A stretch of 64,000 nt of DNA from Candidatus Doudnabacteria bacterium (GCA_020850635.1 JADZEH010000032.1:11421-75420); one strand, 5' to 3'. Shown: positions 11,261-48,926, counted from the stretch's first letter. The notes: generated by a model from the letters alone, not told the origin. Numbers and translations are program-made.

Positions 11261-11366
11261 ATATATTATTTTTTATGACTAGTTTGGCTAGAAAAGCATG
11301 GAAAAAGTTCTTTGTTTTTCTAGCCTTTAATTAGGCGAAAAGCGCATAGCGCTTTATTCTGGTGGA

Positions 11367-16900: not shown

Positions 16901-19900
16901 GCTCAAACAATGGAATTTAGTTTTGATGGTAATACAAATCACAGAGATAAAGCTGTGAGTTATGAATATGATAACTTTCTTGGAAATACTACTAAGCGGA
17001 TAGATTGGGGTGAGGTTACTGGTTCAGCGGATGGGACGTTTACTGATGTAGGTAACGACAAAATAGTTACTGATTTAATATATGCCACTGGTAGTTCCCA
17101 CGACGTAGTAGAGATGATTTCCTCCGAAATATCTACCGACCAGTCTCTAAACAAAGTAAGCGAGACTCATTATTACTATGATAATTTGTCTCTAGGTTCG
17201 ATTGATAAAGGAAATGAAACAAAAGTAGAAAAGTGGAAATCTGGCTCTGATTATATTAACGAACAGAAGGCATATAACTCTCTTGGATTAGTAACGCAAA
17301 CAACTGATCCAAGAGGAAAGAATTTAGTTTATGCATATGATAGTCATAACCTGTTTCCAGCAACGGTTACAAATCATTTAAGTCAGGCAACGCAGTATCA
17401 ATACCATTATTTCTTTGGTAAGCCACTTCAAGTGACCGATGTAAATAACAGGGTATTTAAAACGCTTTATGATGGCGCGGGTCGTATAATTGAGCAAAGA
17501 GAGCCAGATTTAAGCAACCCTACAGCGTTGGTTTCTAAATTTGTAAACACTTATTCAACTTTTGCAGGTGGAGAATTGACACGTCATGTTGAGTACATGA
17601 GTGCTTCTGAATACATAGATTCGTATACTTACTCTGATGCCTTGGGACGTGAAGTTCAGCAACGACTAGCTACCGAAGATAGTGGTAACTATAGAGTAAA
17701 CGATAAAGCTTATGATGCGTTGGGACGTCTGCAAAAAGAGTCATCGCAGTATTTTTCATCCGGAGATGCTAAGACTGTAGCGACAACGACAACTAATCTT
17801 TACACAACCACCTCATATGATCCTCTTGATCGCGTTACTGCAATTGCCAATAATATTGGGATCATAACCAACACTTTCGATGATTGGACTACCACAGTAA
17901 CAGATGCAAGGGGTAAGGTTAAGGTTTTGTACAACGATGCTCGCGGTAATTTAGTTAAAGTTGATGAAAGTAATTCAGGTGCTGTATATACTACTAATTA
18001 CGAATACAATTCAAATAATAATCTTGTTAAAATCACAGATGCTTTGGGTAACGTCCGTAACTTTACCTATGATGCCTTAGGACGTCGTTTAACTGCTCAG
18101 GATTTACATGCCCCGACTGATGTTACTTTTGGTACTTGGACCTACACTTATGATAACAACGGTAATATTACGTCTGTTGTCGATCCTAATAATCAAACCA
18201 TTAATTATACCTACGACGATTTAGGTCGCCTACTTACAGAAGATTTTACTGGTCAGTCGGAAACAGAACTAACTTATACTTATGATTCAGGTACGGATGG
18301 TATGGGTCGGTTGTCTTCTGTAGTTTCTCCCGGAGCTAATACTAGTTACTTATACAACGCACATGGTGGCGTTAAGCAGGAGATAAAAACCATAAATTCC
18401 ACTTCGTATCAGACAGACTATACTTATGATCGTCAGGGAAATCAGCTAGAGATTACTAACCCAGATGGGTCGAAAGTTAAGTATACCTATAATTTCGGAG
18501 GACAACTGGAAACGGTGCAACGTAAAGAAACTACAGATACTTCATTTATAAATGTTGTAAATGATTTTGATTATGGTCCTCATGGAAAAATCACCCTTCA
18601 AGTAAACCAAAATGGTTCTCAAACCAGCAACATTTATGACGCTACTAAGCTTTATCGGCTATCCTCTAAAATAACTACTATTAGTGGCGGTTCTAAGGTG
18701 CAAGGACTTACATATAGTTATGATAATAATAGTAATATTACTCAGGCCGTAGATAATTCAAATACTAATTCAGTAAAAACTGTTGCATATACCTATGATG
18801 ATTTAAACCGGTTACTTAGTTCAACAGCAACAGGGGTTGCTGCTGGTCAGTCGACTTATACCGAAGTTTATAGTTACGATGCTATTGGAAACATTCTGAC
18901 TAAAGCTACTACCGTTGGGGGAGGGGCTACGATAAATACCACGTATTCTTATGCAGGAAGTGCAGGGTCAAGTTATGCAAATCCTCACGCAGTTACTAGT
19001 ATTTCCGATGGAATAAATACTACCAACTTTACGTATGACAATAATGGTAATATGATTGGAGAAGGAAGTAAGACCTTTGCGTTTGATTATAATAATCGTA
19101 TGACGCAGTCAGTTGGCGTAAGTGGTAGTGGTCCGACAACCGTTAGTTTTAATTCTCTAGCTGGCGATGGTGCTATTTATCATCAAAGTTCTTCTTGGGA
19201 TACCGCTCACGATGCTTCGGTGGGTTCGTATGCGTCGTTTACTGTTAATAATTTTTACGTTAGAGCTGGTAAGAATACAAGCACTTCAAATCGTATTGAG
19301 CGTGGGTTCTTACCTTTCGACACATCTTCGTTGCCAGACAGTGCAAATATTACGAGCGCAAAACTTAAAGTCTATGTTTATTCTAAATTGAATAATGATA
19401 ATGACGGTACAGATTGGGTAACTGTGACTCAAGCCACTCAACCCAGTACAACCGTTCTAACAACAGGGGACTACGATTTAGCAGGAAGTATAAATAATCC
19501 GGTTGAAGGGGTTGATGCAGGGCAGCGTAAAGATATTACCAATGTAAGTGTAGGTGGTTACTTAACCTTTGATCTAAATGTAACCGGCCGAGGTTGGGTA
19601 AACACCAGTGGTTCGACAAAGCTTAGTTTGCGTGAAGGCCATGACGCTACAGATAGCGCTTTTGTGGGAACTTCTGGTCAGTATAACGAGCTACGTATTA
19701 TATCATCAGAATATACGGGAACCAGCGTTGATCCAATTTTGGAAGTTACTTATGGCAGTGCCCCTCAGGTCGTTACAACAAATTATAAGTATGATCACAC
19801 TGGCCAGAGAGTTAGCTTATCCAATGGTACGAAAACGGATGTTTATCCGTCAGCTGACTACAATACGGACGGAACGACACCTGTAAAGCACATTTTTGGT

Positions 19901-20911
19901 GCTGGTCAGACCGTAGCTACAATAAAGGGTTCTGGTGTTGGCGCCACTGCGTACTTAGTTCACACTGATCACCTCACTGGGTCTAGTGCTGTAACTAACA
20001 GCGGCGGTACGCTTGAAGAATTGATGGATTACTTCCCATTTGGGAATATTCGTCTCGACCAAAAAGTAGGAAGTTTTGATGAACAGCGTAAATACACGGG
20101 GCATGAGTATGACGTGGATACCGGACTTTCCTATATGGAAGCGAGGTATTATAATCCAAATATCGGAAGATTCCTTAGCCAAGATCCGGTCTTTCTTGCT
20201 TTGGGAAATGAAGAGGGAGTACAACAGAAAACCCAACAAGAATTACAAGAAATATTATCTGATCCTCAGTTATTGAATAGTTATTCTTACGCACGAAATA
20301 ATCCGTTAGCCTACATTGACGAAAACGGAGAGTGGCCATCTTGGAGTCAAATCAAAACTGGCTTCCAGACAGCATGGAATGTAGCCAAGCCGTTTGTACA
20401 GAACAAGATCAACCAAGTACAAAACTCTTGGAACTCATACAATGCTTATATGGACACTCCCGAGGCGCAGCAGAAGTCTCGAGATGCAGCAATGGGTGGT
20501 ATGGCTTACCTTGGACCTATTGGCGGAACTGATAGATACTTTGGATTCGGAGTAGGAAGTATTAATTCTGTAGGTAGTGGCGTGAACCTAACGTCCAGAG
20601 GAGCACTCCATATACAGAAGGGTCATACTTTATCTGGCCAAGCGCCGGGTAATAATAAAAGTTACTTCTTTAATGATGTTGATTATAAAGGTATAATAAC
20701 TAAGTATGGCAATCAAGCTAAGGGTGCAATTCAGGGCAATGGCAATGTGCAAAGAATTCTTGATATGGGCCGTCCAGTAGGATGGGATGCTACTACCGGT
20801 GGAGCAACTTCATTTATGACTATTATTACCGATAAAGCAGGTACTGTAATTACAAGCCATCCTGGCTTACCAACAACAATCAAAGCTATAGTTAAAACCA
20901 TTAAAAAGTAG
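13973..20911 (+). CDS. RHS/YD-repeat polymorphic toxin (TcB/TcC-like), 2312 aa, secreted
   Basis: Signal peptide, then an acidic Pro/Glu-rich linker. An SpvB-like N-domain follows (YEYPIVMPEGRLGMTPAVSLKYNSQ). Several FG-GAP/VCBS-like Asp-rich repeats come next (DINGDKYPDLL, DINEDGKNDIVF, DLDADGY..DVNNDGLKDY, DVNGDGLLDY). A long YD-repeat shell contains many YxYDxxGRL units (YTYDDLGRLL, YDALGRL, YTYDDLNRLL). A non-YD domain of about 170 aa is inserted at about aa 1640-1800 (...YNELRIISSEY..., DNRLRE-like). The RHS core is YTGHEYDVDTGLSYMEARYYNPNIGRFLSQDPV...YSYARNNPLAYIDENGE. A C-terminal extension of about 190 aa, Cys-free, is of unknown family. Confidence 0.9.
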   Translation: MKRTQYLGLRRLVVSFLVFLVIVMPLRPVFAQEVEASVPVTTEPVQQEPQAISEPEPTSMADETPIPTEQADELGTDKTEAPIGDEDPVSEEAVVKEDEPKPEEEVAKIFGGTQGVGLQFKIPSEPQNSVDESTGALIYEYPIVMPEGRLGMTPAVSLKYNSQNITKVDSIVGLGWELTIPYIQRERAKGVEGIYTKANFVTSFSGNLVPTTDISSSPYTVYYSEVDDGSFQKHTFNSDNTWTMTDKSGRVYTFGATAASRQDNPVDTSQVYKWMISKISDVHGNEIQYSYTKDNGQIYPSQIVYTYHSTSPAIHNVSFTYNSPSSYGATTYNAAFPVVTSKVLATIDVTTTAINGVSTNSYSLVNTNAQFIKQKLVTRIDRSYTSTITESVPYSESTSFSYSTKTPGWQQGTHSLEGYLVRNSDYIYKDIFTADFDANGFTDVLISHHDIPSQKYNRLMMNNGSTFTESSSAWSLPTHDLSSNAFIADINGDKYPDLLPRQSDPNPVYLNTGSGFSVDNSNNWKISTYVPEALICGANVGDSNSFDTNSFLHDINEDGKNDIVFFGGSSDFRVFLNNGNGFTLSNNYTFTPQSGANFTIPTVCTGDLDADGYQTLIDVNNDGLKDYFHVTHGTYLNTGSGFAYAASYQIDTAEMDRTGLGDVNGDGLLDYIGFKWTSGGNYCARLLFNDGNGFKQINPTNYPTNCDNSGVWDFSNLSYTGGNSSFFGTLMDLTADGLPDIVGRFSSYDIRGKVRAVNDGVSSWVNNSNAGDQWVDVIAPSYGKYFDINSDGVLDFITPLTSWGYGTMPASMTYMGKPSIPNRLTQITNRLGAQTVVDFDTAPTDLYDRDSAPMPVVKKITTQNLGSGQPDMVTQYDYEKGHYSTNPLTSQVKFAGFSKVTATESGIDLTPLRVTDTYFHQGDNSDSGNSEYQDHISKIGKAYRIEIKDGSGNLYSKTLNTWEHDQIYEGRDFVKLAQTMEFSFDGNTNHRDKAVSYEYDNFLGNTTKRIDWGEVTGSADGTFTDVGNDKIVTDLIYATGSSHDVVEMISSEISTDQSLNKVSETHYYYDNLSLGSIDKGNETKVEKWKSGSDYINEQKAYNSLGLVTQTTDPRGKNLVYAYDSHNLFPATVTNHLSQATQYQYHYFFGKPLQVTDVNNRVFKTLYDGAGRIIEQREPDLSNPTALVSKFVNTYSTFAGGELTRHVEYMSASEYIDSYTYSDALGREVQQRLATEDSGNYRVNDKAYDALGRLQKESSQYFSSGDAKTVATTTTNLYTTTSYDPLDRVTAIANNIGIITNTFDDWTTTVTDARGKVKVLYNDARGNLVKVDESNSGAVYTTNYEYNSNNNLVKITDALGNVRNFTYDALGRRLTAQDLHAPTDVTFGTWTYTYDNNGNITSVVDPNNQTINYTYDDLGRLLTEDFTGQSETELTYTYDSGTDGMGRLSSVVSPGANTSYLYNAHGGVKQEIKTINSTSYQTDYTYDRQGNQLEITNPDGSKVKYTYNFGGQLETVQRKETTDTSFINVVNDFDYGPHGKITLQVNQNGSQTSNIYDATKLYRLSSKITTISGGSKVQGLTYSYDNNSNITQAVDNSNTNSVKTVAYTYDDLNRLLSSTATGVAAGQSTYTEVYSYDAIGNILTKATTVGGGATINTTYSYAGSAGSSYANPHAVTSISDGINTTNFTYDNNGNMIGEGSKTFAFDYNNRMTQSVGVSGSGPTTVSFNSLAGDGAIYHQSSSWDTAHDASVGSYASFTVNNFYVRAGKNTSTSNRIERGFLPFDTSSLPDSANITSAKLKVYVYSKLNNDNDGTDWVTVTQATQPSTTVLTTGDYDLAGSINNPVEGVDAGQRKDITNVSVGGYLTFDLNVTGRGWVNTSGSTKLSLREGHDATDSAFVGTSGQYNELRIISSEYTGTSVDPILEVTYGSAPQVVTTNYKYDHTGQRVSLSNGTKTDVYPSADYNTDGTTPVKHIFGAGQTVATIKGSGVGATAYLVHTDHLTGSSAVTNSGGTLEELMDYFPFGNIRLDQKVGSFDEQRKYTGHEYDVDTGLSYMEARYYNPNIGRFLSQDPVFLALGNEEGVQQKTQQELQEILSDPQLLNSYSYARNNPLAYIDENGEWPSWSQIKTGFQTAWNVAKPFVQNKINQVQNSWNSYNAYMDTPEAQQKSRDAAMGGMAYLGPIGGTDRYFGFGVGSINSVGSGVNLTSRGALHIQKGHTLSGQAPGNNKSYFFNDVDYKGIITKYGNQAKGAIQGNGNVQRILDMGRPVGWDATTGGATSFMTIITDKAGTVITSHPGLPTTIKAIVKTIKK

Positions 20912-25119: not shown

Positions 25120-25388
25120 ACCAACATTGATGACGCAGCTTCTTGATCTAGTCTAGGCCAGCTGTTGGTAACTTTCGACTTTACTTTAACTCCAACCCAA
25201 GCTAGGATGGACTGGATTATGCGCCCTAAATATCGTATAATTGCATTAACAACTTAATGCCTAACCCCTCAGGAATGAGGATATGGCGCTAAAACCTATC
25301 ACAGATACTGAACCCTCCGTTCAGCTACTGTGATAGGTCGTATCTGGAAACAGGTACGGGACCGCAAGGTCCATGCTGGCGGGGGGCT

Positions 25389-25997
25389 TTGTGTTTTCTG
25401 CCAGCAAGAAAGCCTATCACAAACATGGACAATCAATCTGCCTCACCAGAGGCAAAACAACCTTCCATTCTATGGAAGCGTATTAAGACTATCGCTAAAG
25501 GTATAGCTATTTTCATAGTCGTACTTATAGTTGCAGCTGTGTGGCAAAGTATGAATCAACCACAGTCACAAACGCAGTCGCAAGGCACGGCTCAACAAGC
25601 AGAAGAACCAAAAGAAGAACAAACTCCTGCTAAAGAACCTCCCGTTGAACCATTCAATATTGAAGTTACCAGTCAGATAGTCAAAAAAGTAGACGGCAAA
25701 TACCGCTACTTCTTTGACATCAGAAACAAAGACACTAAGAACTTTGAGGGAGCAGTGACTATTAATTTGCTAAGAGCAAATAACAGTAGGCTTGGCTCAG
25801 ATACGTTTACTACTACAAGAGCTATTGAACCTAATCTTGGTTTTGCTCAATACATTGAAATTAATTCAGGACCAATGCCGATGTTTGATTCAGAATCAGC
25901 AATTACTAAATTCACATACGAAGTGAAGATAGATAAGAAATCCGTGAAGAGCGGAGAAGGAGTTATTACAGATAAGTTTGAGAACTTAGATTATTAA
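25389..25997 (+). CDS. hypothetical secreted/membrane-anchored protein
   Basis: 202 aa. The likely start is the internal Met (MDNQSAS, about 25431). It has one N-terminal TM helix, then a Gln/Glu/Pro-rich linker and a beta-rich domain. Confidence 0.45.
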   Translation: MCFLPARKPITNMDNQSASPEAKQPSILWKRIKTIAKGIAIFIVVLIVAAVWQSMNQPQSQTQSQGTAQQAEEPKEEQTPAKEPPVEPFNIEVTSQIVKKVDGKYRYFFDIRNKDTKNFEGAVTINLLRANNSRLGSDTFTTTRAIEPNLGFAQYIEINSGPMPMFDSESAITKFTYEVKIDKKSVKSGEGVITDKFENLDY

Positions 25998-38392: not shown

Positions 38393-40714
38393 ATGGAAAA
38401 TTCACAAACGTATCGAGTTAAAGGAATGCACTGCGCATCTTGTGCTGGTATTATTGAGAAAACACTGAAGAAAACAGCAGGAGTAGATTCGGTGGAAGTT
38501 AATTATGGTACTGAAACTTGCAAGATTGCATTTGATGAAAATAAAATCAATCCCCAAGACCTTTCTCAGAAAATTGAAAAGTTTGGATACTCTTTGGCTA
38601 CGCCAGCAGAGCAGGGGATGAACCATGAGATGACCGCAGAACAAATGGGTCATAGCCCATCAGAGCATGCCGAGCATTTAGGTTTGAATCAATCAAAAGA
38701 AGAAAAGCTTGCTGAGCTCAAAGATTTAAAGTATAAAATTATTTCTGTAATCCCATTAGCGGTTTTTAGTATCGTGTTAATGAGTTGGGATATTTTAGTG
38801 CAGTTTGGGTATGTCGGAGAAATGTCTTACACGATGAAAGAGTTTTTCCATCATCTCTTGCCAATTTTCGCGACTTATACTTTGTTTGTGGTAGGCAAAC
38901 CTTACTTACTTGGTTTTTATCGATTTCTTCGATACGGAGTTGCTAATATGGAAAGTTTGATTGGGATTGGGACTACGGCCGCATTTGTCTACAGTTTCGC
39001 TGTCACTGCTTTTGAAGAAGTCCTAGCTCCTTACCTTAACGTTGAACACACATACTATGATGTCACGATTGTTGTCATCGCTTTTATTACTCTAGGTAAA
39101 TACCTTGAAGTTCGTTCCAAGATGAAAACTGGTGATGCAATTGAGCAATTACTTAATCTTCAAGCAAAAACCGCGTTAGTAATTCGTGATGGAAAAGAGA
39201 TCGAAATTCCAGCTGACCAGGTTGTGATCGGAGATTTAGTTGTTGTTAAGCCGGCTGGGAAGTTACCAGTAGACGGTATCATTACAGACGGATCGTCCTT
39301 TGTAGATGAGGCCATGGTAAGCGGAGAACCCATTCCAGTGGAGAAACAGGTTGGTGACAAGGTTGTAGCCGGGACGGTTAATACTAGCGGTACGTTTACT
39401 TTTAAAGCTACTGGTGTTGGTTCTGAAACTTTACTTGCCCATATTGTCAAAATGGTTCAGGAAGCCCAAGGCAGCAGGGCACCAATTCAGGCTTTGGCAG
39501 ATAAAATTTCTGCGGTGTTTGTGCCGATAGTGATTGTCTTGGCATTTGTTTCACTAGGGCTATGGTTAGTGATTGGTACTCAGTATCTTGGCTTTTCCCA
39601 AGCCTTATCGTATGGTTTAGTTTCCTTTGTTGGGATTCTAGTTATTGCTTGTCCTTGTGCTTTGGGTTTGGCTACGCCAACGGCAATTATTGTCGGTGTT
39701 GGCAAAGGTGCTAAAGAAGGCATCTTAATTAAAGATGCAGGTACACTACAAAAGTTACATAAAGTAAATACTGTGGTGGTTGATAAAACAGGCACTATAA
39801 CAAAAGGAAAACCAGAATTAGGAGCTATTAAGAATTACTCTGCTGAAAGCGATAATGATCTGATTGCAATTCTAGCAACTTTGGAAAATAAATCTGAACA
39901 TCCAATTGCTCACGCAGTAGTCCAATACGCTAAAGCACATTCTGTGGAACTATTAAAACTAGATAAATTTGAAGCGATTAAAGGTAAGGGTTTGCGAGGA
40001 GTGGTAGCTGGAGAAGAATATTTTGCTGGTAGTTTGAAGTTAATTTCTGATTTAGGTTTAGAATTTAATTCTGCCGAAATTGAATCGGAAACACTTACTG
40101 GTAAAACTCCTGTGGTTTTGGCGACTAAGACTGGTGTGGTGGGTGTGGTGTTCGTGGCAGATCCAATTAAGCCAGAAGCAGTGGCCGCGGTTGCAAAGCT
40201 TCATCAGCTTGGTATAGATGTTGTTATGCTTACCGGTGACAACAAAAATACAGCAGAATTTATTGCAAAACAGGTTGGTATTGATCAAGTCCAAGCAGAG
40301 GTGTCGCCTGAAGATAAATTGAACAAGATAAAAGCACTGCAAGCTGAAGGTAAAATAGTCGCAATGGCAGGGGATGGTGTGAATGACGCACCGGCACTCG
40401 CGCAAGCCGATGTTGGTATCGCTATGGCAACTGGTACAGACGTTGCTATTGAAAGTGCTGGAATCACCTTGCTTCATGGTGATATCAGTAAACTAGTAAA
40501 AGCAATTCGCTTGTCTAAATTAACCATGCGTGGGATTAAGCAGAATTTGTTTTGGGCGTTTTTCTACAATGTTGTTGGTATACCGCTAGCAGGTGGGGCT
40601 TTCTTCCCATTGTTTGGGTGGTTATTAAATCCAATTTTTGCTGGACTGACTATGGCCTTTTCTAGTGTTTCGGTGGTCGCCAACTCACTGCGATTAAAAG
40701 TTAAGAAATTATAA
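38393..40714 (+). CDS. copA: copper-translocating P1B-type ATPase
   Basis: 773 aa. It has an N-terminal HMA domain (GMHCASCAG), a CPC transmembrane metal site ([11 protein letters not shown]), the phosphorylation motif DKTGTITKG, and hinge motifs [10 protein letters not shown] and MLTGDN. Confidence 0.9.
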
Positions 40715-40718
40715 ATCC

Positions 40719-41741
40719 ATGAATAAAACCTACACCTTTCATGTTAAGGGGATGCACTGTAAAGCTTGCGTGTTAATGATTGATAGTGAGTTAGAAGATT
40801 TGCCGAATGTAGAGAGTGTTAGCGCAAGCCTCCAAAAACATCAGGTTGAAGTGAGTGGTGATTTTGGTGAAAAAACCCCTGAGCAAATTGCAGAGGAGTT
40901 AAGTCTTCCACTCGCAAATCGTGGTTATAATCTCACCGTTGAAAAGCATGCCACGAAAAAGAATTGGTCAGAATTTATTTATGCGGTGCCAATTGCTGCA
41001 GTCTTCGCTCTGTTGTTCGTGTTGTTGCAAAAATCTGGAGTTGTAAATTTAGTAGATGCTAGTGAAATGTCTTACGGCACTGCGTTTTTAATTGGCGTGA
41101 TCGCTTCGGTTTCTACTTGTATGGCAGTGGTTGGTGGGCTAATTCTTTCCATGTCCGCCAGTTATGCAAAAACAGGTGACACGATGAAACCTCAAATTTT
41201 ATTTCACATTGGCCGAATCGTATCTTTTTTTAGTCTTGGTGGAATTATTGGGGCGATAGGTTCAGCTTTTGCATTGAATCAAGCAAGCACCTTTGTTCTA
41301 GGCTTAGTAATCGGTCTTGTGATGTTAGTGCTCGGTCTTAATTTGTTAGAAGTATTTCATTTTACCAAGAAACTTCAACCAGCTATGCCCAAGTTTATCT
41401 CTAGGCATGTTATGGGAATTTCGAAGTTTAATCATCGCTTTACGCCAATCGTGGTAGGTGTCGCGACCTTCTTCTTACCCTGTGGATTTACTCAATCCAT
41501 GCAGATTTATACTTTATCAACTGGTAACTTTTTAAGTGGTGGTTTGACGATGCTAGCTTTTGCTTTAGGAACCTTGCCGGTATTGGCATTGATCAGTTTT
41601 AGCTCTTTCAGCATCAAAAATAGTTCGAAGTCAGGAATATTCTTCAAAACTGCAGGTTTGATAGTTATATTATTTGCGTTATTTAATCTCATCAGCAGTT
41701 TTGTCGCAATTGGCTGGATACAACCTGTATTTAATTTTTAA
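40719..41741 (+). CDS. HMA-domain protein fused to a polytopic membrane domain (DsbD/CcdA- or TauE-like)
   Basis: 340 aa. The N-terminal HMA domain has GMHCKACV, and a 6-TM hydrophobic domain follows. Confidence 0.6.
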   Translation: MNKTYTFHVKGMHCKACVLMIDSELEDLPNVESVSASLQKHQVEVSGDFGEKTPEQIAEELSLPLANRGYNLTVEKHATKKNWSEFIYAVPIAAVFALLFVLLQKSGVVNLVDASEMSYGTAFLIGVIASVSTCMAVVGGLILSMSASYAKTGDTMKPQILFHIGRIVSFFSLGGIIGAIGSAFALNQASTFVLGLVIGLVMLVLGLNLLEVFHFTKKLQPAMPKFISRHVMGISKFNHRFTPIVVGVATFFLPCGFTQSMQIYTLSTGNFLSGGLTMLAFALGTLPVLALISFSSFSIKNSSKSGIFFKTAGLIVILFALFNLISSFVAIGWIQPVFNF

Positions 41742-41755
41742 TTTAGAGTATTCTT

Positions 41756-42229
41756 ATGAAGAAGTGGAAATTAAAACATCAGTACAAAATGGAACAACCA
41801 GTAGAAAATAATAAAAAAACTATTGCCGTATTAGTCTCAATTACGGTGCTTGTTATTGGCCTATTTGGAATGATAATATTTCTTAGTAAAGATAAGTCAA
41901 ATCCTAGTAGTTCTAATCAAACAAAATCAGAAACTTCAGTGAATAATGTATCTATTATAGACGGCAAACAAGTTATTGAAATTTTTGCTAAGGGAGGATA
42001 TTCTCCCAAGCAAAGCGTTGCTAAAGCGGGTGTACCCACGATTCTAAAATTTAAAACCAATGGAACTTACGATTGCTCTTCTTCATTACGAATTCCTAGT
42101 TTGAATATCAGTAAAAATTTGCCAGGCACAGGTGAGACAGAGATTGAGATTGGACCGCAGGAAGTAGGAAAATTTGCAGGAACTTGCAGCATGGGCATGT
42201 ATTTTTTTGAAATCAATTTTCAAGCCTAG
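41756..42229 (+). CDS. membrane-anchored cupredoxin-like protein
   Basis: 157 aa with an N-terminal TM helix. The C-terminal beta-domain has the motif Cys...Met (GTCSMGMYFF), which resembles type-1 copper sites. This reading is tentative. Confidence 0.45.
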   Translation: MKKWKLKHQYKMEQPVENNKKTIAVLVSITVLVIGLFGMIIFLSKDKSNPSSSNQTKSETSVNNVSIIDGKQVIEIFAKGGYSPKQSVAKAGVPTILKFKTNGTYDCSSSLRIPSLNISKNLPGTGETEIEIGPQEVGKFAGTCSMGMYFFEINFQA

Positions 42230-42247
42230 CTAAGTACTATTAAAAAA

Positions 42248-42271
42248 ATCGCCAGAAGGGCGGTTTTTTTT
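42248..42271. terminator. bidirectional intrinsic terminator
   Basis: A7 + CGCCAGAAGGGCG + T8. Confidence 0.7.
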
Positions 42272-42374: not shown

Positions 42375-42403
42375 TTGACATGTACAGAAGAACGGTGTAT
42401 TGT
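42375..42403 (+). promoter_or_regulatory. candidate promoter of the 42469 operon
   Basis: TTGACA at 42375-42380, a 17-nt spacer, then TATTGT at 42398-42403 preceded by TG. The SD AAAGGAGG lies upstream of the TTG start. Confidence 0.4.
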
Positions 42404-42468
42404 ACAAAGATTTCTCAGTTATATAGGATATAACGAGAAGTTAGGTTGCTGAAAAGGAGGAAAAACCC

Positions 42469-42954
42469 TTGGAAAAGTTATATTTTACCAAGAAAGGGTA
42501 TGTATCGCTCAGGCAAAAAGGGCTTGAAATGGAAAAGAAGCTTTCTGAGTTGCAAGCTCAAACGGCGCACGTAGCTGACGTTGGGGGTAATCAGTATCAT
42601 GATAATTCATCCTATGAGATGTTAATTATCGATATACGAGCTGCGGACTTCCAATTGAAGCAAATACGCAACACCCTAAACAAGGCGGTAATCGTCGAGC
42701 TTCCCAGGGATAACTCGTTTGTTACTTTAGGGACTCGTGTAACCTGTGTAGTCAACGGCGAGACCAGAGTTTACACAGTAGTGGGCTATGAGGAATCGAA
42801 CCCAGAAAAAAATCGAATTGCCTACAATACTCCACTAGCCAAACTGATGTTGCGTTGCGCAGTGGGGGATGAGATAGAAGGGTCTATTTCTGGGAGACCT
42901 GTTTGCATTGAGATACTGAAAATCGAGGTCTTAGAGGAGGAAGGTGATGCATAA
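42469..42954 (+). CDS. GreA/GreB-family protein (Rnk-like regulator, nucleoside-diphosphate-kinase regulator type)
   Basis: 161 aa. It has an N-terminal coiled-coil segment and a C-terminal FKBP-like GreA domain (VVGYEESNPEKNRIAYNTPLAKLMLRCAVGDEIEG). Confidence 0.6.
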   Translation: MEKLYFTKKGYVSLRQKGLEMEKKLSELQAQTAHVADVGGNQYHDNSSYEMLIIDIRAADFQLKQIRNTLNKAVIVELPRDNSFVTLGTRVTCVVNGETRVYTVVGYEESNPEKNRIAYNTPLAKLMLRCAVGDEIEGSISGRPVCIEILKIEVLEEEGDA

Positions 42955-43507
42955 GATTGTGTGTCTAACAGGACCATCTGGAGTAGGAAAGACATCCTAT
43001 GCAAAGAGGTTGTGTCACATGAAAGGGTTTTCTGTACCAAGGGTCGCCACAACCAGACAGAGACGTGCTGATGACGGACCACAGTATGTATATGTTTGCA
43101 GGGATGTGTTTCTTAGAATGGTGGGCGATTCAACGTTTATTGAGCACGATGCATATTTGAGCTATTATTATGGGACTTTCAGAGAAGATGTAATTAGCCC
43201 CGTAATAGGTTCTCAAGCAGTTGTGCTTGATCTCACTCCGAGAGGTGTTGAGCAGGTAGTTCGAGTAATTCCTGATGCCATCGTGATTGTTATCCAGCCT
43301 GACGATCCTACCTGGTTGTTGACTCGATTGAGAGAACGTGGTACTCAAGAGGAGTCAGAGATTCTTGATAGGCAGAAAAACCTGATTGAATTTCTCAAAC
43401 AACTCGATAGACTTCCAGGCACGAGAGTGAGCGCTAGTTACAGCCCAAGTTCTTGGGACCAAACGTTCCAGGAAATTCTTGACTCAATCGGGGTGGTAAC
43501 TTTTTAA
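42944..43507 (+). CDS. guanylate-kinase-like P-loop kinase
   Basis: 187 aa. P-loop GPSGVGKTS. The Gmk-like blocks are ATTRQRRADDGPQYVYVCRDVF ... FIEHDAYLSYYYGT. It overlaps the upstream gene by 11 nt. Confidence 0.6.
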   Translation: MMHKIVCLTGPSGVGKTSYAKRLCHMKGFSVPRVATTRQRRADDGPQYVYVCRDVFLRMVGDSTFIEHDAYLSYYYGTFREDVISPVIGSQAVVLDLTPRGVEQVVRVIPDAIVIVIQPDDPTWLLTRLRERGTQEESEILDRQKNLIEFLKQLDRLPGTRVSASYSPSSWDQTFQEILDSIGVVTF

Positions 43508-43535
43508 AGGAAACCACCCCATACAATTTTATTAT

Positions 43536-44276
43536 ATGAATACCATAGAATCTATAGAAAATTTAATAAATGAAAAGGGTTTTAAAGTTGACAGGAAGGA
43601 TTTAGAAAATATATGGAACAAGGTTTGGAAAGGTATCGAGCCTGATAATTATTCAAGTTTACGTTTATATAAAACTTTGGATAAAGTAAGAAATATTGAA
43701 AATTTAGGAGTGGATTTTACAAATAAAAATATTTTAGATATTGGTTGTGGTGATGGGACTTTGATTAAATACCTAAGTAGTAAATATCAGGCTCAGTGTG
43801 TTGGAATTGATATTTCTAAAGATGTGATAAATCAAAATAAAGAAAAAAGTCTTATTAACGTACAATTTTCTATTGGCGACCATAGAGATCTTAGAGATTT
43901 TGAGTCAGAAACATTTGATCTAGTAATTAGTTTAGGTGTGGTTGAACATTTTCAAGAATACGGCTTAGCTTTGTCTGAAGCTAGGAGGGTATTAAAAACT
44001 GGGGGGAAGCTTATTTTAATACAACCTCATCTATTATCGTTTGGTGTTATCCAAGAGTTTTTGTTAAGATTAACTCAAAAATGGAAGTTTGGTAAACAGT
44101 ATGATTTTAGTTATTTCTATTATCGAAAACTATTAAAAATTTTAGGTTTTAGATTTATTCAAACGCAAACACAACCACCCTATTTTGATATGAGGGTGGT
44201 AAGAACGTTAGATATTCTTATAAAAAGATTCATCGTTAGTTGGGGACACTATCTATATATAATTGCTCAAAAATAA
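43536..44276 (+). CDS. class I SAM-dependent methyltransferase
   Basis: 246 aa. Motif I is ILDIGCGDGTL, with an acidic residue at the end of beta-2 (GIDIS) and motif IV LVISLGVVEH. It is very AT-rich. Confidence 0.7.
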   Translation: MNTIESIENLINEKGFKVDRKDLENIWNKVWKGIEPDNYSSLRLYKTLDKVRNIENLGVDFTNKNILDIGCGDGTLIKYLSSKYQAQCVGIDISKDVINQNKEKSLINVQFSIGDHRDLRDFESETFDLVISLGVVEHFQEYGLALSEARRVLKTGGKLILIQPHLLSFGVIQEFLLRLTQKWKFGKQYDFSYFYYRKLLKILGFRFIQTQTQPPYFDMRVVRTLDILIKRFIVSWGHYLYIIAQK

Positions 44277-44613
44277 TATGGAAATTTCAAAAGCCCAAGA
44301 AAATTTAAAATCTTTATTATCAAGGGTCGCTTACCCTAGAATCGGCACAATTATTGGATTACAAGAAGAGGTCGGAAAGCTTTCTAAGGTTATCATGGAT
44401 ATCGAAATTTATAATAGGGAATTAAATAAAGCAGAGTTGGACAAGAGATGTGCTAATGTCTTTGTTGCTGTTATGGATATGTGTAATTCTTATGATATAG
44501 ATTTGGAGTTAGTTATAGAAAAACGTATAGAAGAAGTTAATTCTAAAATAAAAATGTGGGAAAGTCAGTACGGTGAAGAGTTAAGAAACAAAAGAGAAAG
44601 ATTCGATGAATAG
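44263..44613 (+). CDS. MazG-like nucleoside triphosphate pyrophosphohydrolase (small all-alpha NTP-PPase)
   Basis: 116 aa. It has the EExxE/K motif in helix 1-2 (GLQEEVGKLSKVIMDIE) and a second acidic cluster (DMCNSYDIDLE). The start overlaps the upstream stop. Confidence 0.55.
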   Translation: MLKNNMEISKAQENLKSLLSRVAYPRIGTIIGLQEEVGKLSKVIMDIEIYNRELNKAELDKRCANVFVAVMDMCNSYDIDLELVIEKRIEEVNSKIKMWESQYGEELRNKRERFDE

Positions 44614-45328
44614 ACAAAACCAGAAAATATATAAGAACTCTTTCAGCCTTTTTTTAAAAAGTACTAACGAAAAGAAGGTAATTTTGGATTTTGTTAAAAA
44701 AAATATATCATTGGGAAAAGTTAAGAATGTATTAGATATTGGTGGTGGAAATGGTGCCTTGGCTTTACCGCTAGCCCGTTTAAAAAAAAATGTTACCGTA
44801 GTGGAACCCAATAAACAACTAGCTGGTAAATTAAATTCACGACGAATTAAGTATGTAAACAAAACATGGGAGAACTATAAATCATCTAAAAAATTTGATC
44901 TTGTTGTGGCTGCATACGTAGTCACTTATTTTAAAAAGAAAGATTTGCCTAAGTTAATAGATAAGATGTATGAGTTAGTTTTACCGGGAGGATGCTTGAT
45001 TATTTTTACTATTGATCCTAAAAGGGGTTCGTGGCGAGGAATACACACCTATTTTTACCAGTTGTTAGGGATTGAGCATAAATCTTCTACGTATTTACTC
45101 AAATCATATCTTTCTAAATATAAGCATGTATGTTCAAGATCAATAAAAACTCTAGTAAAGACTAAAAATATTTCTGAAATGCTCAAGATTTTAGCGTTTG
45201 ATTTTTATCAATATGAACCAAATTTTACTAAATATAAAATTGAACTTGAGAAGTACTTAAAGAAACATCTTGTAGGCAAGGGTGTGGTACTAAAAATGGT
45301 ACACGAGGTATTTATTATCAAAAAATAA
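44606..45328 (+). CDS. class I SAM-dependent methyltransferase (second)
   Basis: 240 aa. Motif I is VLDIGGGNGALALPLA and the post-I acidic residue is VVEPN. The start overlaps the upstream stop. Confidence 0.65.
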   Translation: MNRQNQKIYKNSFSLFLKSTNEKKVILDFVKKNISLGKVKNVLDIGGGNGALALPLARLKKNVTVVEPNKQLAGKLNSRRIKYVNKTWENYKSSKKFDLVVAAYVVTYFKKKDLPKLIDKMYELVLPGGCLIIFTIDPKRGSWRGIHTYFYQLLGIEHKSSTYLLKSYLSKYKHVCSRSIKTLVKTKNISEMLKILAFDFYQYEPNFTKYKIELEKYLKKHLVGKGVVLKMVHEVFIIKK

Positions 45329-45331
45329 TAT

Positions 45332-45940
45332 ATGAATAAAAATATTGAATTAGAGTTTCGTGCGAATTTGACAAAAAAACTAGCAGAGAGAGTAGATCGC
45401 CAACTGACCGCCCTAGCAAAGAGAAAAGAAGTTACAAAAAGGATTTCATTTATGTCCTTTGGTTCTCAGGGTTCAAATAATATTGACATTAGAGTGCGTT
45501 TAACAAATGGAAAATCAGAGGTCGTTATAAAGACGGGTGAATTACATTCTCATAAACGAATCGAGCTTTCACAAACCATTGGGACTGAACAATTTATGGG
45601 ATTTGTTAAACTATTTACATTATTCAATTATGAAACTAAAATAGCTGAACGGGTAACAACTAATTATTATTTGAAAAATAATATCGTAGTATCTATTGTA
45701 CAAGCTAAAAGCATTTTTTATCTAGAAATAGAAAAATTAAGTCATATAAGTGAAATTGAAAAAAACACAAAAATTTTAAAAGATATTTTGAAGAAGCTTG
45801 GCTTGAGTGATCATATAATTAATACCAAGGCAGCGTTTGATCAACTCTGCTCTTTACTATCGAAGAAAACCGATTGGACGTATAAGGGGTCCATGAGAGA
45901 TGAAAAAAGATTAAAAATGTTAATTAAGAGGTTTATTTAG
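45332..45940 (+). CDS. CYTH-like (CyaB/thiamine-triphosphatase fold) triphosphate tunnel metalloenzyme, putative
   Basis: 202 aa. The N-terminus has the ExExK/R motif (IELEFRANL), and the C-terminus has the acidic ExE cluster (FYLEIEKL). These are the two signature motifs of CYTH domains. Confidence 0.45.
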   Translation: MNKNIELEFRANLTKKLAERVDRQLTALAKRKEVTKRISFMSFGSQGSNNIDIRVRLTNGKSEVVIKTGELHSHKRIELSQTIGTEQFMGFVKLFTLFNYETKIAERVTTNYYLKNNIVVSIVQAKSIFYLEIEKLSHISEIEKNTKILKDILKKLGLSDHIINTKAAFDQLCSLLSKKTDWTYKGSMRDEKRLKMLIKRFI

Positions 45941-46048
45941 AAAAATAAAAGACATCTTTAACTAATAGATGTCTTTTATCGGTGCAGCTAGTCTAATTGG
46001 TGGAATTGAGGATACTTTAATTACCACACTTTTAGAAAATTGGTTACA

Positions 46049-46816
46049 TTAATTTAGTAGTTCTTTCAGCGCTACTCGGTACTGTTCTCTTACTACTTCT
46101 TCTTTACGCTCTTTTCCATGTTTAAAATTTTCATCTAGTACTGTTTCTTCTTTAATGAGGTTGTCGGTCATATAAATTAGACCTGCGCTTGGAACACCAA
46201 AATGCTCCGACACCGCAAAAACTGTTGAGGCTTCCATTTCGACTCCCAAAAACCCTTCCTCCGACCACTTTTTAATGTGCTCTAAAGTTTCGCCCATCAT
46301 AGCTTGTGATGTAGTAGTCGCTCCTCGATGTACTTTAAAATCTGGTTTAATCTTTTCCTGCAGACTTTGTGAAAGCTCTTCGTCGGGAAAGTGTTTATTA
46401 TCTGTCTCATCAGGACCATACATTCGTGTTGAGCTTTCATTACCAAAGCTATATGTGGGAATGATTAAGTCACCAGGGTTTACGTCTAGTGAAAGTCCGC
46501 CACAACTCCCGAGTACAATATTTTTCTTTGAGCCGAATAAACAGGCGAGGTGTAAATATTCTGACAACAAGGCACCGCCGTATGAGATGTCAAACCAATA
46601 ACGCTTACCGTCTATAACAAACTCAGTCATGCGCCCCAAGAATTCAGGTAGGGAATTAAATTCGGCTTGCTTGCCTAAGTCTGTCATGGCTTGTTTGAAA
46701 ATGGGAATTTGTTTTTGTTTGTTCCAAGTACCATAACAAAGCATGCCCTCGATCTGATAGTCTTCAGAAAAACCTAAGTATTTTTTGTAATCACTAGCGC
46801 TGAATGTTTTATACAT
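46049..46816 (-). CDS. nucleoside phosphorylase (PNP/UDP family 1)
   Basis: 255 aa. The conserved segment is IVLGSCGGL, followed by an acidic/Met-rich region typical of purine/uridine phosphorylase and MTA nucleosidase family proteins. Confidence 0.65.
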   Translation of the reverse strand: MYKTFSASDYKKYLGFSEDYQIEGMLCYGTWNKQKQIPIFKQAMTDLGKQAEFNSLPEFLGRMTEFVIDGKRYWFDISYGGALLSEYLHLACLFGSKKNIVLGSCGGLSLDVNPGDLIIPTYSFGNESSTRMYGPDETDNKHFPDEELSQSLQEKIKPDFKVHRGATTTSQAMMGETLEHIKKWSEEGFLGVEMEASTVFAVSEHFGVPSAGLIYMTDNLIKEETVLDENFKHGKERKEEVVREQYRVALKELLN

Positions 46817-46890
46817 AGCAGTATTATATCTGAAAGATTAGCGGTTTAAAAGCTTACGAAAAACACCCAGCAAAAGCTGGGTGAAATTCG

Positions 46891-46919
46891 TGGGGTCGCA
46901 TAGTGGAGGATGTCCGCAC
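46891..46919 (+). repeat. conserved 29-nt motif, copy 2 (TGGGGTCGCATAGTGGAGGATGTCCGCAC)
   Basis: 28 of 29 positions are identical to copy 1. It sits between the trmH-like stop (46922) and the hairpin CACCCAGCAAAAGCTGGGTG. Confidence 0.7.
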
Positions 46920-46921
46920 TA

Positions 46922-47746
46922 TCATTCAGTGTTCCGTCTCTGGCGGTCAATCTCATAAAGTACTATAGAGGAAGCAGCTGTTACGTTGAGGGAAGAGGCG
47001 GAACCATACATTGGTATTTTTACTATTGTATCGGCAATTTCTCGATAAGCTTCACTTAGACCTTTTGTTTCATTTCCTACTAACAATATGGTTGGCTTTT
47101 TAAAATCGTGTTGATCAATTGCGACTTTACCATTTTCGTCAGTAGCAATCACTTGGAGTGTTGTATACTGCTTTTTTAATTTATCAATCCATGGTAGTAG
47201 CTCCTTATGGGAGGGGAGTCGGACAGTTGGGACAACAAAGCTTGAACCACGTGATGCGCTAATGACCTCAGGATCGTATAAATCTGCAGCGTGACCTGTA
47301 ACAATTAGACTGTTAACTTTTAGAGCGTCCGCAGATCTAATGAGACTTCCTAAGTTACCTGGGCTTACTGGACGGTCAAAAACAATGACTAGTAAATCTT
47401 TGCTTACTGGAATTTTATCTAAGTTATCTTTAGGTATCGTGAGAACTGCTAGCAGTTCAGAGCCTTCTTCTTTTAAGCTTAGTTTATGCAGAAGGGTAGA
47501 GGAGAGCTCATAATGAATTTCTGCTTTAGAGCTATGTAAGATATCATGTGCCCAACTTGATAACTTGGAAGGGTTGTAAATAAAGGCGTGGATGTTCCAG
47601 TCGTGAGCTAGAGCTTGATTAATCGGACGCACGCCTTCAACAAAAAACAAACCTTGTTTACTCCGCTTTTCACGATTGCGTCTCAAGGTTTCAATTAATT
47701 GAAAGTCGCTATTCTCGCTATATATCTTTTTAATTTTGGGCTTCAT
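46922..47746 (-). CDS. TrmH/SpoU-family RNA 2'-O-methyltransferase (RlmB-like)
   Basis: 274 aa. The SPOUT motifs are LVIVFDRPVSPGNLGSLIRSADALKVNSLIV, IPMYGSASSLNVTAASSIVLYEI, and an N-terminal substrate-binding domain. Confidence 0.8.
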   Translation of the reverse strand: MKPKIKKIYSENSDFQLIETLRRNREKRSKQGLFFVEGVRPINQALAHDWNIHAFIYNPSKLSSWAHDILHSSKAEIHYELSSTLLHKLSLKEEGSELLAVLTIPKDNLDKIPVSKDLLVIVFDRPVSPGNLGSLIRSADALKVNSLIVTGHAADLYDPEVISASRGSSFVVPTVRLPSHKELLPWIDKLKKQYTTLQVIATDENGKVAIDQHDFKKPTILLVGNETKGLSEAYREIADTIVKIPMYGSASSLNVTAASSIVLYEIDRQRRNTE

Positions 47747-47749
47747 ATT

Positions 47750-48299
47750 CTAAGAAAGTTTTTTGATGGTTTCAATAACTCGCTCTGCTACTCGCGATGG
47801 TTCTAAGTCGCTGGTATTAATCACTTCGTATCCGTGTTTTTGAGCTTCCTCTCGGAGAATCCGAGCAAAGTTAATACTGTCTCCAATAAATTGTTCAACT
47901 GGCTTACCAGTAACCATCACTTCCGATTCAACTCCACTTCGGACCTGATACCGTCTTTCAAGTCTACTTCGAAGTACTTCGGGATTGGCGTCTAAAAGAA
48001 AGGCTCCCACCATATCTGTACTTACTTGTAGTTTGTCTAAGGCAGCATGAAGTTCCTCTGGGCGCGTGATGCCAAAGATAATTGTTTTTGATATGATGCT
48101 CAGAGTTTTTAGTACCTTCCTTGATCCAATTTTCTGTTTGTTCGATTCTCCATTGCTCATCAACGTCGTCAGGTACCCCTACTTCATCCATATCGTGGAT
48201 GTGGTACTCGGAATGGGGAAGTTTGTTTTTCACAAGATCCATAACCGTTGATTTTCCCGCCCCAGAACCCCCTGATATAAAGAAAATTTGTTTGTTCAT
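47750..48299 (-). pseudogene. P-loop nucleoside/nucleotide kinase split by a frameshift into two overlapping ORFs
   Basis: ORF 47964-48299 begins MNKQIFFISGGSGAGKSTVMD (Walker A) but degenerates after about 70 aa. ORF 47750-48163 encodes the remaining kinase body (…IIFGITRPEELHAALDKL…). The frame switch lies near 48080-48130. The cause could be a genuine mutation, a sequencing error, or programmed frameshifting. Confidence 0.5.
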
Positions 48300-48386
48300 A
48301 GACTTAGGATAACAAAAAACACCTGCTATTAACAGGTGTCTTTTGCTTGGATCATAGGGTGGGGGATGTGGAAACCATAGTTCGTT

Positions 48387-48926
48387 CTAAACACCTGATA
48401 ACTGATTTGGCAGATCACTAATCTTATTTAGAATTTTAATTCTACTAGCTTTGCTGTCTGGAATTTCTAAATATGAAGTACTCAACAGCATGCATTCAAT
48501 ACCTACAGTTTTTGCTGAAAGGTAATCATAAGTGTAATTGTCTCCAATTAAGATAGCCCTAGATTTAGGGATGTGTAATCTCTTCAGCACAGAAACCATT
48601 ACTTTTCCTTTTCCCCAAGGATATGGCCTAGCTGTATAAATGGCATCAAACAGTTTGTTAAGTTTTAGATGTTCCATTTTTGCATTCATATGAATATCCG
48701 CTTCAAGTCGAGGATGGGGATGGGTGGAGAGGGCGATTAGAGTTTTGCCCTGAGACTTTAATTTTTTGAGAGTGGCAATAATTGAAGGTGTTGCTTTTAG
48801 ATGGGGGATGTATTTTACGAATTTAGGGTGCTCCTTGTAAATCCAGTGAGGCTTCATTTTCCACTTAGTACTCTTGGGGTACCAGAGTGTTCCATCACCA
48901 TCAAAAAATATTACTTCTTTTTTCAT
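48387..48926 (-). CDS. HAD-superfamily hydrolase
   Basis: 179 aa. Motif I is FFDGDGTLW (DxDxT), and a motif IV-like segment is ILIGDNYTYD. Confidence 0.7.
   Translation of the reverse strand: MKKEVIFFDGDGTLWYPKSTKWKMKPHWIYKEHPKFVKYIPHLKATPSIIATLKKLKSQGKTLIALSTHPHPRLEADIHMNAKMEHLKLNKLFDAIYTARPYPWGKGKVMVSVLKRLHIPKSRAILIGDNYTYDYLSAKTVGIECMLLSTSYLEIPDSKASRIKILNKISDLPNQLSGV

Follow-up and report, generated by a model that had tools for sequence, protein, structure and literature searches.

We analyzed a 64,000-nucleotide stretch of DNA from Candidatus Doudnabacteria bacterium (JADZEH010000032.1, 11421-75420; hereafter, the window), in which six plus-strand genes, encoding proteins that we call GreL, GKL, MT1, MazL, MT2 and CYTH, occupy positions 42469 to 45940 (Table 1). 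The locus had been described from the sequence alone as a single operon of nucleotide-acting enzymes (the original prediction). Open reading frame (ORF) calling on the window returned exactly the six coordinate pairs given there, and comparison with related loci showed that the six families form a conserved cluster, which is better described as two units, unit A (GreL-GKL) and unit B (MT1-MazL-MT2-CYTH), than as one operon. The overlaps and gaps between neighbouring genes were also as first described, except that the overlap of MazL with MT1, which requires MazL to start at TTG 44263, is probably not real. The stop codon of MT1 is TAA 44274-44276, and ATG 44278 begins one base later; this ATG is most likely the start of MazL, because it agrees with the 111-amino-acid (aa) protein called by NCBI and with the N termini of homologues. 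The NCBI proteins IT410_04160 and IT410_04150 are identical to the products of ORF6 (CYTH) and ORF4 (MazL), respectively, and are encoded on a 77-kb contig.

Table 1. Genes and predicted signals of the six-gene module, in window coordinates (ΔG, predicted folding energy; SAM, S-adenosylmethionine; NMP, nucleoside monophosphate; TTM, triphosphate tunnel metalloenzyme)
Feature	Positions	Strand	Basis and remarks
Intrinsic terminator of upstream cupredoxin gene, left module boundary	42242-42270	+	12-bp stem and U8; ΔG -13.1, z -4.1
Promoter-like site TTGACA-17 nt-TATTGT, 5' of GreL	42375-42403	+	Consensus scan, 10/12 matches; consensus only
Leader stem-loop, predicted 5' end of GreL mRNA	42409-42442	+	ΔG about -14.9, z -2.8
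Strong Shine-Dalgarno sequence AAGGAGG before GreL TTG start	42455-42461	+	Sequence
GreL, Gre-factor paralogue, 161 aa	42469-42954	+	Pfam PF01272; N-terminal coiled coil and GreA/GreB C-terminal domain
GKL, guanylate-kinase-like P-loop NMP kinase, 187 aa	42944-43507	+	Pfam PF00625, 9e-21
Hairpin GGGGTGGT-N15-ACCACCCC across GKL stop, 15 nt 5' of MT1 start	43490-43520	+	ΔG -16.8, z -3.5
MT1, class I SAM-dependent methyltransferase, 246 aa	43536-44276	+	Pfam Methyltransf_11, 2.6e-22
MazL, MazG-like four-helix protein, 111 aa	44278-44613	+	All-alpha MazG fold; longest ORF from TTG 44263 (44263-44613)
MT2, class I SAM-dependent methyltransferase, 240 aa	44606-45328	+	Pfam Methyltransf_23, 1.7e-13; start overlaps MazL stop
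CYTH/TTM-type triphosphatase (predicted), 202 aa, C-terminal helical extension	45332-45940	+	AlphaFold2 and Foldseek
Terminal hairpin between A- and U-tracts, resembling a bidirectional terminator; right boundary	45945-45979	+	13-bp stem; ΔG -14.2, z -5.4

Conservation and anatomy of the module

Related loci, 51 in all and denoted below by L numbers, were gathered by context look-ups and by collection scans started independently from CYTH, MazL and GreL. The three separate searches each converged on the identical six-family cluster. At least five of the six families lay side by side in 26 loci, corresponding to about 20 lineages once near-identical contigs were collapsed, and all six genes were full length in 15 loci, the window included. 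The expectation that the families would be found together in other genomes was therefore borne out: the genes stay linked in related loci rather than being scattered, and their association is not due to chance. Most commonly, MT1-MazL-MT2-CYTH is followed by a convergent GKL-GreL pair; the collinear order of the window recurs in L001, L045 and L049, and L007 has the order GKL-GreL-MT1::MT2-CYTH, in which the double colon marks a fusion. The cluster flanks are unrelated between loci, and the adjacency of the members survives inversion and reordering. Pairwise-identity matrices of the six families correlate with one another (rho 0.61-0.89), which argues that units A and B share a history. By their labels, the hosts are mostly Patescibacteria (Giovannoni-, Falkow-, Doudna- and Parcubacteria). 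Seven records are third-party-annotation metagenome-assembled genomes with the label 'uncultured Gammaproteobacteria', some of which share flank gene families with loci labelled as candidate phyla radiation (CPR).

The families are rare. Among 5.8 billion proteins, GreL had eight homologues at 44-96% identity, followed by a drop to canonical GreA at 27%, and an exhaustive profile search of 1.84 billion proteins with MazL gave 30 cluster representatives at E ≤ 1e-10. The gene context of three new GreL homologues was looked up; each had GKL, in one form or another (full or truncated), as a neighbour, and genes of unit B adjoined two of them (L049 and L051), with none recognised in L050. Because of this rarity, GreL and GKL are read as putative dedicated parts of the module and not as housekeeping greA and gmk. 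A housekeeping greA-gmk pair beside a parked island was rejected as the main reading, as GreL equals unit B in rarity and, wherever the gene context could be read, had GKL always and unit B usually beside it.

The division into two units is marked by a hairpin across the GKL stop codon (Table 1), a candidate terminator or attenuator and the boundary of both units and of the two GC regimes described below. A strong hairpin between GKL and MT1 was found in all four loci in which MT1 directly follows GKL (the window, L001, L045 and L028); those of L045 and L028 are textbook hairpins with a clean T-run. Where the units are convergent, CYTH and GKL have a common hairpin at their 3' ends that is conserved in sequence too, GCGGCTAAGT-loop-ACTTAGCCGC, which lies in the CYTH/GKL intergenic region of L006 (8604-8661), L009, L012, L029, L030, L034, L038 and others, and partly overlaps the GKL C terminus. 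Of the single operon behind a single promoter that had been proposed, the TTGACA site is present, but because a hairpin parts GKL from MT1 in collinear loci and the units are convergent in most relatives, we describe two units. The predicted terminator at the end of the genes was confirmed as a hairpin with a U-tract, which faces a convergent gene for a purine nucleoside phosphorylase (PNP)-like protein. The start of GKL overlaps the stop of GreL, suggesting that GKL is translationally coupled. In related loci, GreL nearly always has a strong Shine-Dalgarno sequence, and MT1 usually has none.

Promoter-like matches such as that 5' of GreL are not enriched here (20 observed versus 17.7 expected from shuffled sequence); TTGACA-type sites recur 5' of GreL in most related loci. 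A leader hairpin at the equivalent position of GreL was found in L003, L013, L029, L030, L031, L034, L049 and L051, with a stem sequence that varies by locus, and often precedes a AGCACATTCACAA-like tract and then the strong Shine-Dalgarno sequence. The leader sequences are short and strongly divergent. A riboswitch in the leaders was rejected, since Rfam models at the gathering threshold matched only a LOOT RNA and one tRNA, both elsewhere in the window.

The units also differ in base composition. In the window, the GC content is 44-45% in the first two genes, 29-31% in the other four and 40% in the remainder, close to the values first reported (about 45-48% and below 30%). Across about 25 loci, the mean GC content was 42% for GreL, 41% for GKL, 31% for MT1, 32% for MazL, 29% for MT2 and 34% for CYTH. 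The offset between the units persists at flank GC contents from 26 to 53% and at all three codon positions (for example, in L006, L030 and L040). These results indicate that, whatever the host, the GC mosaic goes with the module as a stable trait. Because an equal offset recurs whatever the GC content of the host, recent local horizontal transfer or insertion was rejected as its origin.

Six protein families

Pfam supports four of the six members (GreL, GKL, MT1 and MT2), the folds of MazL and CYTH were recognised by structure prediction, and no member was moved to a family other than the one originally predicted. GreL matches PF01272 with an E value of 7.5e-15 and 55 bits (cut-off 26.9) over residues 82-153; PF03449 of Pfam gives no match, and the scores lie under all NCBIfam cut-offs (GreA, 57 bits versus 145; GreB, 46 versus 188; Rnk, 19 versus 109). 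GreL nevertheless aligns over its full length with E. coli GreA, coiled coil included. Its best-conserved segment is the tip, VGG[D/N]QYHDN[A/S]SYE, which is nearly invariant and forms a loop two residues longer than that of GreA. Cleavage-type Gre factors typically require two acidic tip residues (PMC4598747), D41 and E44 in E. coli. In GreL, the equivalent of E44 is a conserved Asp, but that of D41 is D or N, with N in the window and about half of the family, so that the acidic pair is not preserved. GreL thus resembles Gfh1 and Rv3788, Gre paralogues that inhibit RNA polymerase (RNAP) (PMC4598747), in having a tip unlike the canonical cleavage tip, and resembles DksA/ppGpp and Rnk/Ndk in its tie to guanine-nucleotide metabolism (PMC4598747). 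It differs from Gfh1, Rv3788, Rnk and DksA in its longer tip loop, GG[D/N]QYHDN[A/S]SYE, and in its partners, a GMP-kinase-like enzyme and four more enzymes, which are unreported for those proteins; unlike DksA/ppGpp, the cluster has no RelA/SpoT-type synthetase. Assignment of GreL to Rnk was rejected: at 161 aa, GreL has a full-length N-terminal half, whereas Rnk, at about 136 aa, has a shortened coiled coil.

GKL is 28% identical to E. coli Gmk, with which it shares the P-loop NMP-kinase fold and the phosphate-binding and lid residues, and it scores 92 bits against the NCBIfam guanylate kinase model TIGR03263, whose equivalog cut-off is 160. An alignment of 22 members with E. coli Gmk showed as invariant or nearly so the sequence GPSGVGKT, T37-R38, R41, Y48/Y50, E67, Y76-G77-T78, D96, R128, R132 and R143. 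These include what is expected of Gmk: the P-loop, Arg and Tyr residues that bind phosphate, three lid arginines, and the Glu, within FLE, by which guanine N1/N2 is read; YYGT and the first Asp of LDxx are kept as well. On these residues, GKL is expected to have NMP kinase activity towards a guanine-like substrate. It departs from Gmk in deletions around the TTR motif, in a family-specific C-terminal SFSPDSWD motif and, throughout the family, in V or A for the Ser of S-x-TTR (-4 of TTR) and Thr for the second Asp of LDID. The gmk-rpoZ-spoT-trmH operon of E. coli is a precedent for a GMP kinase linked with transcription and nucleotide-signalling genes.

The N- and C-terminal regions of MT1 are family-specific, and 57 columns are invariant among 21 sequences. 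The closest solved structures of MT1 and MT2 are small-molecule methyltransferases (PH0226, phosphoethanolamine N-methyltransferase, cyclopropane-fatty-acid (CFA) synthase, TehB and NodS), and both resemble such enzymes more than those that act on nucleic acids; those nearest to MT2 are MM_2633, TehB, CmoA-like proteins and phosphoethanolamine N-methyltransferase. In L007, MT1 and MT2 are fused as one 470-aa protein, a sign that a single pathway includes two methylation steps, and in L025, MT2 is fused to an MT1 remnant.

MazL had no match in Pfam or NCBIfam; structure prediction resolved it as the all-alpha, four-helix MazG fold. The metal-binding motif of MazG proteins, EExxE(12-28)ExxD, is altered in this subfamily to EExxK...[K/R]xx[N/E], and reads EEVGK...RCAN in the window. 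At 19 of the 20 tabulated homologue loci, K or R occupies the third position, and K, R or N the first position of the second motif; cluster-linked MazL proteins, L045 excepted, have EExGK (R in L033) and [K/R/N]-C-[A/S]-[E/N]. L045 and distant members of the MazL family keep the canonical EExGE...ExAD. D46, C63, D72 and C74 are new invariant residues of the cluster type. Charge-reversed metal ligands, these new invariant residues and the lack of a Pfam match distinguish MazL from YpjD/Bacillus MazG, Sulfolobus solfataricus MazG, DCTPP1 and phage MazZ. Because two metal ligands are charge-reversed, MazL may have changed its chemistry or become a binding subunit. Of the MazG-like nucleoside triphosphate pyrophosphohydrolase that had been predicted, the fold stands, but the activity is uncertain.

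CYTH likewise had no match in Pfam, PF01928 included, or NCBIfam, and a CYTH profile found none among Protein Data Bank sequences. Its AlphaFold2 model has a pLDDT of 92.7, and the top Foldseek matches are all CYTH/TTM proteins, with E values of 1e-8 to 1e-6 against 2een, 1yem, 7nsd, 5a60 and 2fjt. Invariant residues are E6xE8xR10, R37, R54/R56, K67, R76/E78, E106/R107 and E132xE134-K135; model and residues together supply the hallmarks of TTM proteins: the tunnel fold, an N-terminal ExExK (with R for K here), basic tunnel residues and a C-terminal ExE. Class IV adenylyl cyclases carry HF four residues before ExExK, and in them a small residue replaces the central Arg of the xRxR strand (Vogt et al., PMC8233210); thiamine triphosphatases have WxRxR, whose Trp stacks on the thiazolium (PMC8233210). 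The N terminus of CYTH, MNKNIELEFR, lacks the HF motif and the central R54 is retained, which rejects class IV adenylyl cyclase (CyaB), and I-D-I-R-V-R, with no Trp, stands in place of WxRxR, which rejects thiamine triphosphatase. By these residue patterns, CYTH is predicted to be of the triphosphatase type and not a cyclase, so that the triphosphate-tunnel assignment of the original prediction is upheld by both fold and residues. CYTH shares with SaTTM, CthTTM, NeuTTM, YgiF and AtTTM3 the eight-stranded tunnel, the N-terminal acidic motif, the opposing basic residues and the C-terminal ExE. It differs from them in having ExExR for ExExK, in scoring under PF01928, in its C-terminal helical extension with invariant C173 and D181-W182, and in belonging to a six-gene module.

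Mobility, decay and surroundings

On the best reading, the six genes are an accessory module that Patescibacteria can do without and that moves horizontally, made of two co-inherited units. MazL and MT2 carry frameshifts in L008 and L046 and are lost from L012, GKL remains only as a fragment in L023, and CYTH is frameshifted in L025. In high-GC hosts, the GC content of the cluster departs from that of the host. In L018, the whole six-gene cluster sits between two IS200-like genes for Y1 transposases, at 1637-2065 and 5981-6319, which belong to one family, a bracketing that resembles a composite transposon. A 2408-aa ORF, distinct from the 2312-aa ORF of the window, abuts the cluster in L035.

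Directly 5' of MT1, a gene of about 61 aa for a MerR/excisionase-type helix-turn-helix protein was found in one subclade (L012, L013, L026, L027, L034, L044, L047 and L048). It often has stop codons or frameshifts and may be a decaying regulator or the remnant of a mobile element.

CYTH also occurs outside the cluster. Separate clades for cluster-linked and solo CYTH homologues were rejected by a neighbour-joining tree, which intermixes both; the solo copies therefore look like derivatives or relocations. Partnerless homologues adjoin NUDIX hydrolases in L005, L010, L011 and L015, a second canonical Pfam-CYTH gene in L011 and L020, and cytochrome-b5-like genes in L020 and L022. CYTH and NUDIX may form a separate recurring pair. 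In L051 and L029, the full cluster, too, has NUDIX genes in its flanks.

In the window, a copper/heavy-metal cluster lies directly upstream of the module (38393-42229, plus strand), with genes for a CopA-like P-type ATPase and a membrane protein, each with an HMA domain, and for a cupredoxin-like protein. On the opposite strand 3' of the module (46049-48926), genes encode a PNP/UDP-phosphorylase-family protein, a SpoU-type RNA 2'-O-methyltransferase, a split kinase and a HAD hydrolase; these nucleoside- and RNA-related neighbours were found in the window genome only and are not kept in the other loci. The kinase, a P-loop kinase-like gene at 47750-48299 (minus strand) with the N terminus MNKQIFFISGGSGAGKST, appears split into two overlapping ORFs in different frames, 47964-48299 and 47750-48163, with a frameshift, an assembly error or decay to a pseudogene as possible causes. 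Elsewhere in the window, the LOOT RNA (RF03000) is full length at 25258-25372 (plus strand; 83.6 bits versus a gathering score of 46.4), 5' of an ORF at 25389-25997, and the 2312-aa ORF lies at 13973-20911 (plus strand). Two ORFs of 406 aa (11331-12551, minus strand) and 614 aa (11367-13211, plus strand) overlap almost completely, and at most one of them is likely to be real.

Possible functions of the module

The original prediction knew of no described system with this exact composition, and none was found in full-text literature, PADLOC, PHROGs or viral contigs. PADLOC-DB 2.0 gave only matches to generic methyltransferase cores (mad2 and Type II MTase) and none for GreL or MazL; with nothing specific there, a known defence system was rejected. 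A viral origin was rejected as well, as neither the CYTH nor the MazL profile detected relatives in IMG/VR, and PHROGs gave only generic kinase and methyltransferase matches. All six folds are known; what is new as a system is their conserved combination, above all the dedicated Gre paralogue within nucleotide chemistry, which matches no system found or tested.

The likeliest of the readings, though one that may well prove wrong, is that a doubly methylated guanine nucleotide is both produced and turned over by the module, which would be coupled to RNAP via GreL. We infer the following substrate and order of steps. Unit B would carry out chemistry on a phosphorylated small molecule, most likely a guanine nucleotide, to which the paired and sometimes fused MT1 and MT2 would add two methyl groups. 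The TTM triphosphatase would set the phosphorylation state, either by taking the terminal phosphate off the triphosphate form or by clearing inorganic triphosphate (PPPi). The divergent MazL would hydrolyse the nucleotide or merely bind it, and GKL of unit A would re-phosphorylate the monophosphate form. GreL would insert its specialised, non-cleavage-type tip into the RNAP secondary channel, the nucleotide route to the active site. The outcome would be a private pool of methylated guanine nucleotide tied to transcription, used as an RNAP modulator or an unusual initiating nucleotide; there is a precedent in an NMP kinase that affects RNAP's choice of nucleotide for the 5' ends of transcripts (PMC8565310). 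The more specific version, in which a dimethylated guanine nucleotide is presented to or acts on RNAP via GreL, either as an alarmone pair like ppGpp/DksA built from unrelated parts or as a non-canonical initiating nucleotide that leaves a methylated, cap-like 5' end on transcripts, is rather doubtful.

Several points weigh against this proposal. The matches of the methyltransferases lie mainly within the generic SAM-binding core, and the binding of GreL to RNAP is assumed from homology. On the yeast Guk1-GMP structure, the two altered positions of GKL are presumably guanine contacts, which would suggest an altered base, but a literature search for the roles of these residues gave nothing usable. 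Two canonical metal ligands are charge-reversed in cluster-type MazL, the protein is missing from L007, L012 and L025, and it may play a small or non-catalytic part. Nor does the module need every component, as GreL is lacking from L016 and L035 and CYTH from L045. In the sequence covered, the 64-kb window and the fetched flanks, no canonical greA or gmk was present. Finally, TTM enzymes often prefer inorganic triphosphate over nucleotides (PMC8233210).

The same enzymes could instead act on the 5'-terminal guanosine of transcripts, and not on free nucleotides, in a cap-like processing of RNA 5' ends, which we consider unlikely. CYTH would convert pppG-RNA to ppG-RNA, MazL or a neighbouring NUDIX protein would remove pyrophosphate, GKL would re-phosphorylate pG ends, MT1 and MT2 would methylate the RNA end, and GreL would aid RNAP in initiation or promoter escape. 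With the eukaryotic and viral mRNA capping apparatus (TTM RNA triphosphatase, guanylyltransferase, and N7- and 2'-O-methyltransferases), the module has in common a TTM enzyme, two SAM methyltransferases and a link to RNAP, and the TTM family includes the Cet1-type RNA triphosphatases of that apparatus (PMC8233210); in the structural search, however, the best matches to the CYTH model were CyaB-type proteins and TTMs from archaea and bacteria, and not Cet1. MT1 weakly matches the models for mRNA cap guanine-N7 methyltransferase (mRNA_G-N7_MeTrfase, E 0.015) and FtsJ (E 1.5e-4), but MT1 and MT2 stay under the cut-offs of these models, and the matches are far weaker than those to small-molecule methyltransferases. 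NUDIX genes recur by the cluster or CYTH homologues (L005, L010, L011, L015, L029 and L051), some with weak Nudt16-like matches of the decapping-enzyme type, and the RppH literature still treats as unidentified the bacterial enzyme that turns triphosphorylated RNA ends into diphosphorylated ones. On the other hand, searches with Pfam and NCBIfam found no guanylyltransferase or ligase-like domain in or beside the cluster, and the six proteins have neither a nucleotidyltransferase nor an RNA-binding domain. The GMP-kinase-like and MazG-like proteins have no counterpart in the capping apparatus, and the RNA end on which Gre factors work, within the secondary channel, is the 3' and not the 5' end.

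It is improbable that the module is a conflict system, in which unit B would make a methylated guanine-nucleotide antimetabolite, for example a chain terminator or RNAP poison, directed against phage or the host cell of these episymbionts, while GreL would rescue the producer's RNAP from stalled complexes and CYTH and MazL would detoxify its own pool. The sporadic distribution, frequent decay, variable flanks, IS200 genes of L018 and a unit B that is AT-rich at any host GC content are typical traits of accessory islands, and a kinase with nucleotide-modifying enzymes resembles the logic of nucleotide-based defence, as in prokaryotic viperin-type systems. PADLOC matches were nevertheless limited to generic methyltransferase cores, viral contigs held no copies, and the cluster has no recognisable sensor, effector nuclease or abortive-infection component; nor were defence genes enriched in the sample of flanks examined. 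Gre factors do rescue stalled and misincorporated complexes (PMC4598747), but N at the acidic tip position in about half of the GreL family, the window included, argues against rescue by cleavage.

A pathway outside nucleotide metabolism, in which MT1 and MT2 would methylate a phospho-base or metalloid, CYTH would be an inorganic triphosphatase and unit B would merely lie beside a divergent greA-gmk pair with no functional reason, is very improbable: the solved relatives of MT1 and MT2 do include phosphoethanolamine N-methyltransferases (two-domain in plants), TehB, ArsM-like and CFA-synthase proteins, PPPi is often preferred by TTMs, and the units differ in GC content, Shine-Dalgarno use and transcription, but GreL and GKL match unit B in rarity, GKL (or its truncated form) lies by three of three and unit B by two of three new GreL homologues, adjacency outlasts inversion and reordering, and nucleotides are what the folds of the MazG-like and the GMP-kinase-like protein alike suggest.

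CPR/Patescibacteria have tiny genomes and scavenge nucleotides, and little is known of their transcription regulation. That a six-gene module is kept in about 20 lineages is notable because these genomes are so small and dependent on scavenging. Even on a conservative reading, the module yields two families outside Pfam, a MazG subfamily with a re-wired active site and a set of proteins for biochemistry. If its product is a methylated guanine nucleotide acting at RNAP, the module would represent a new system of nucleotide signalling or of marking RNA 5' ends, and among Gre-family paralogues GreL would be the first for which a small-molecule partner is defined.

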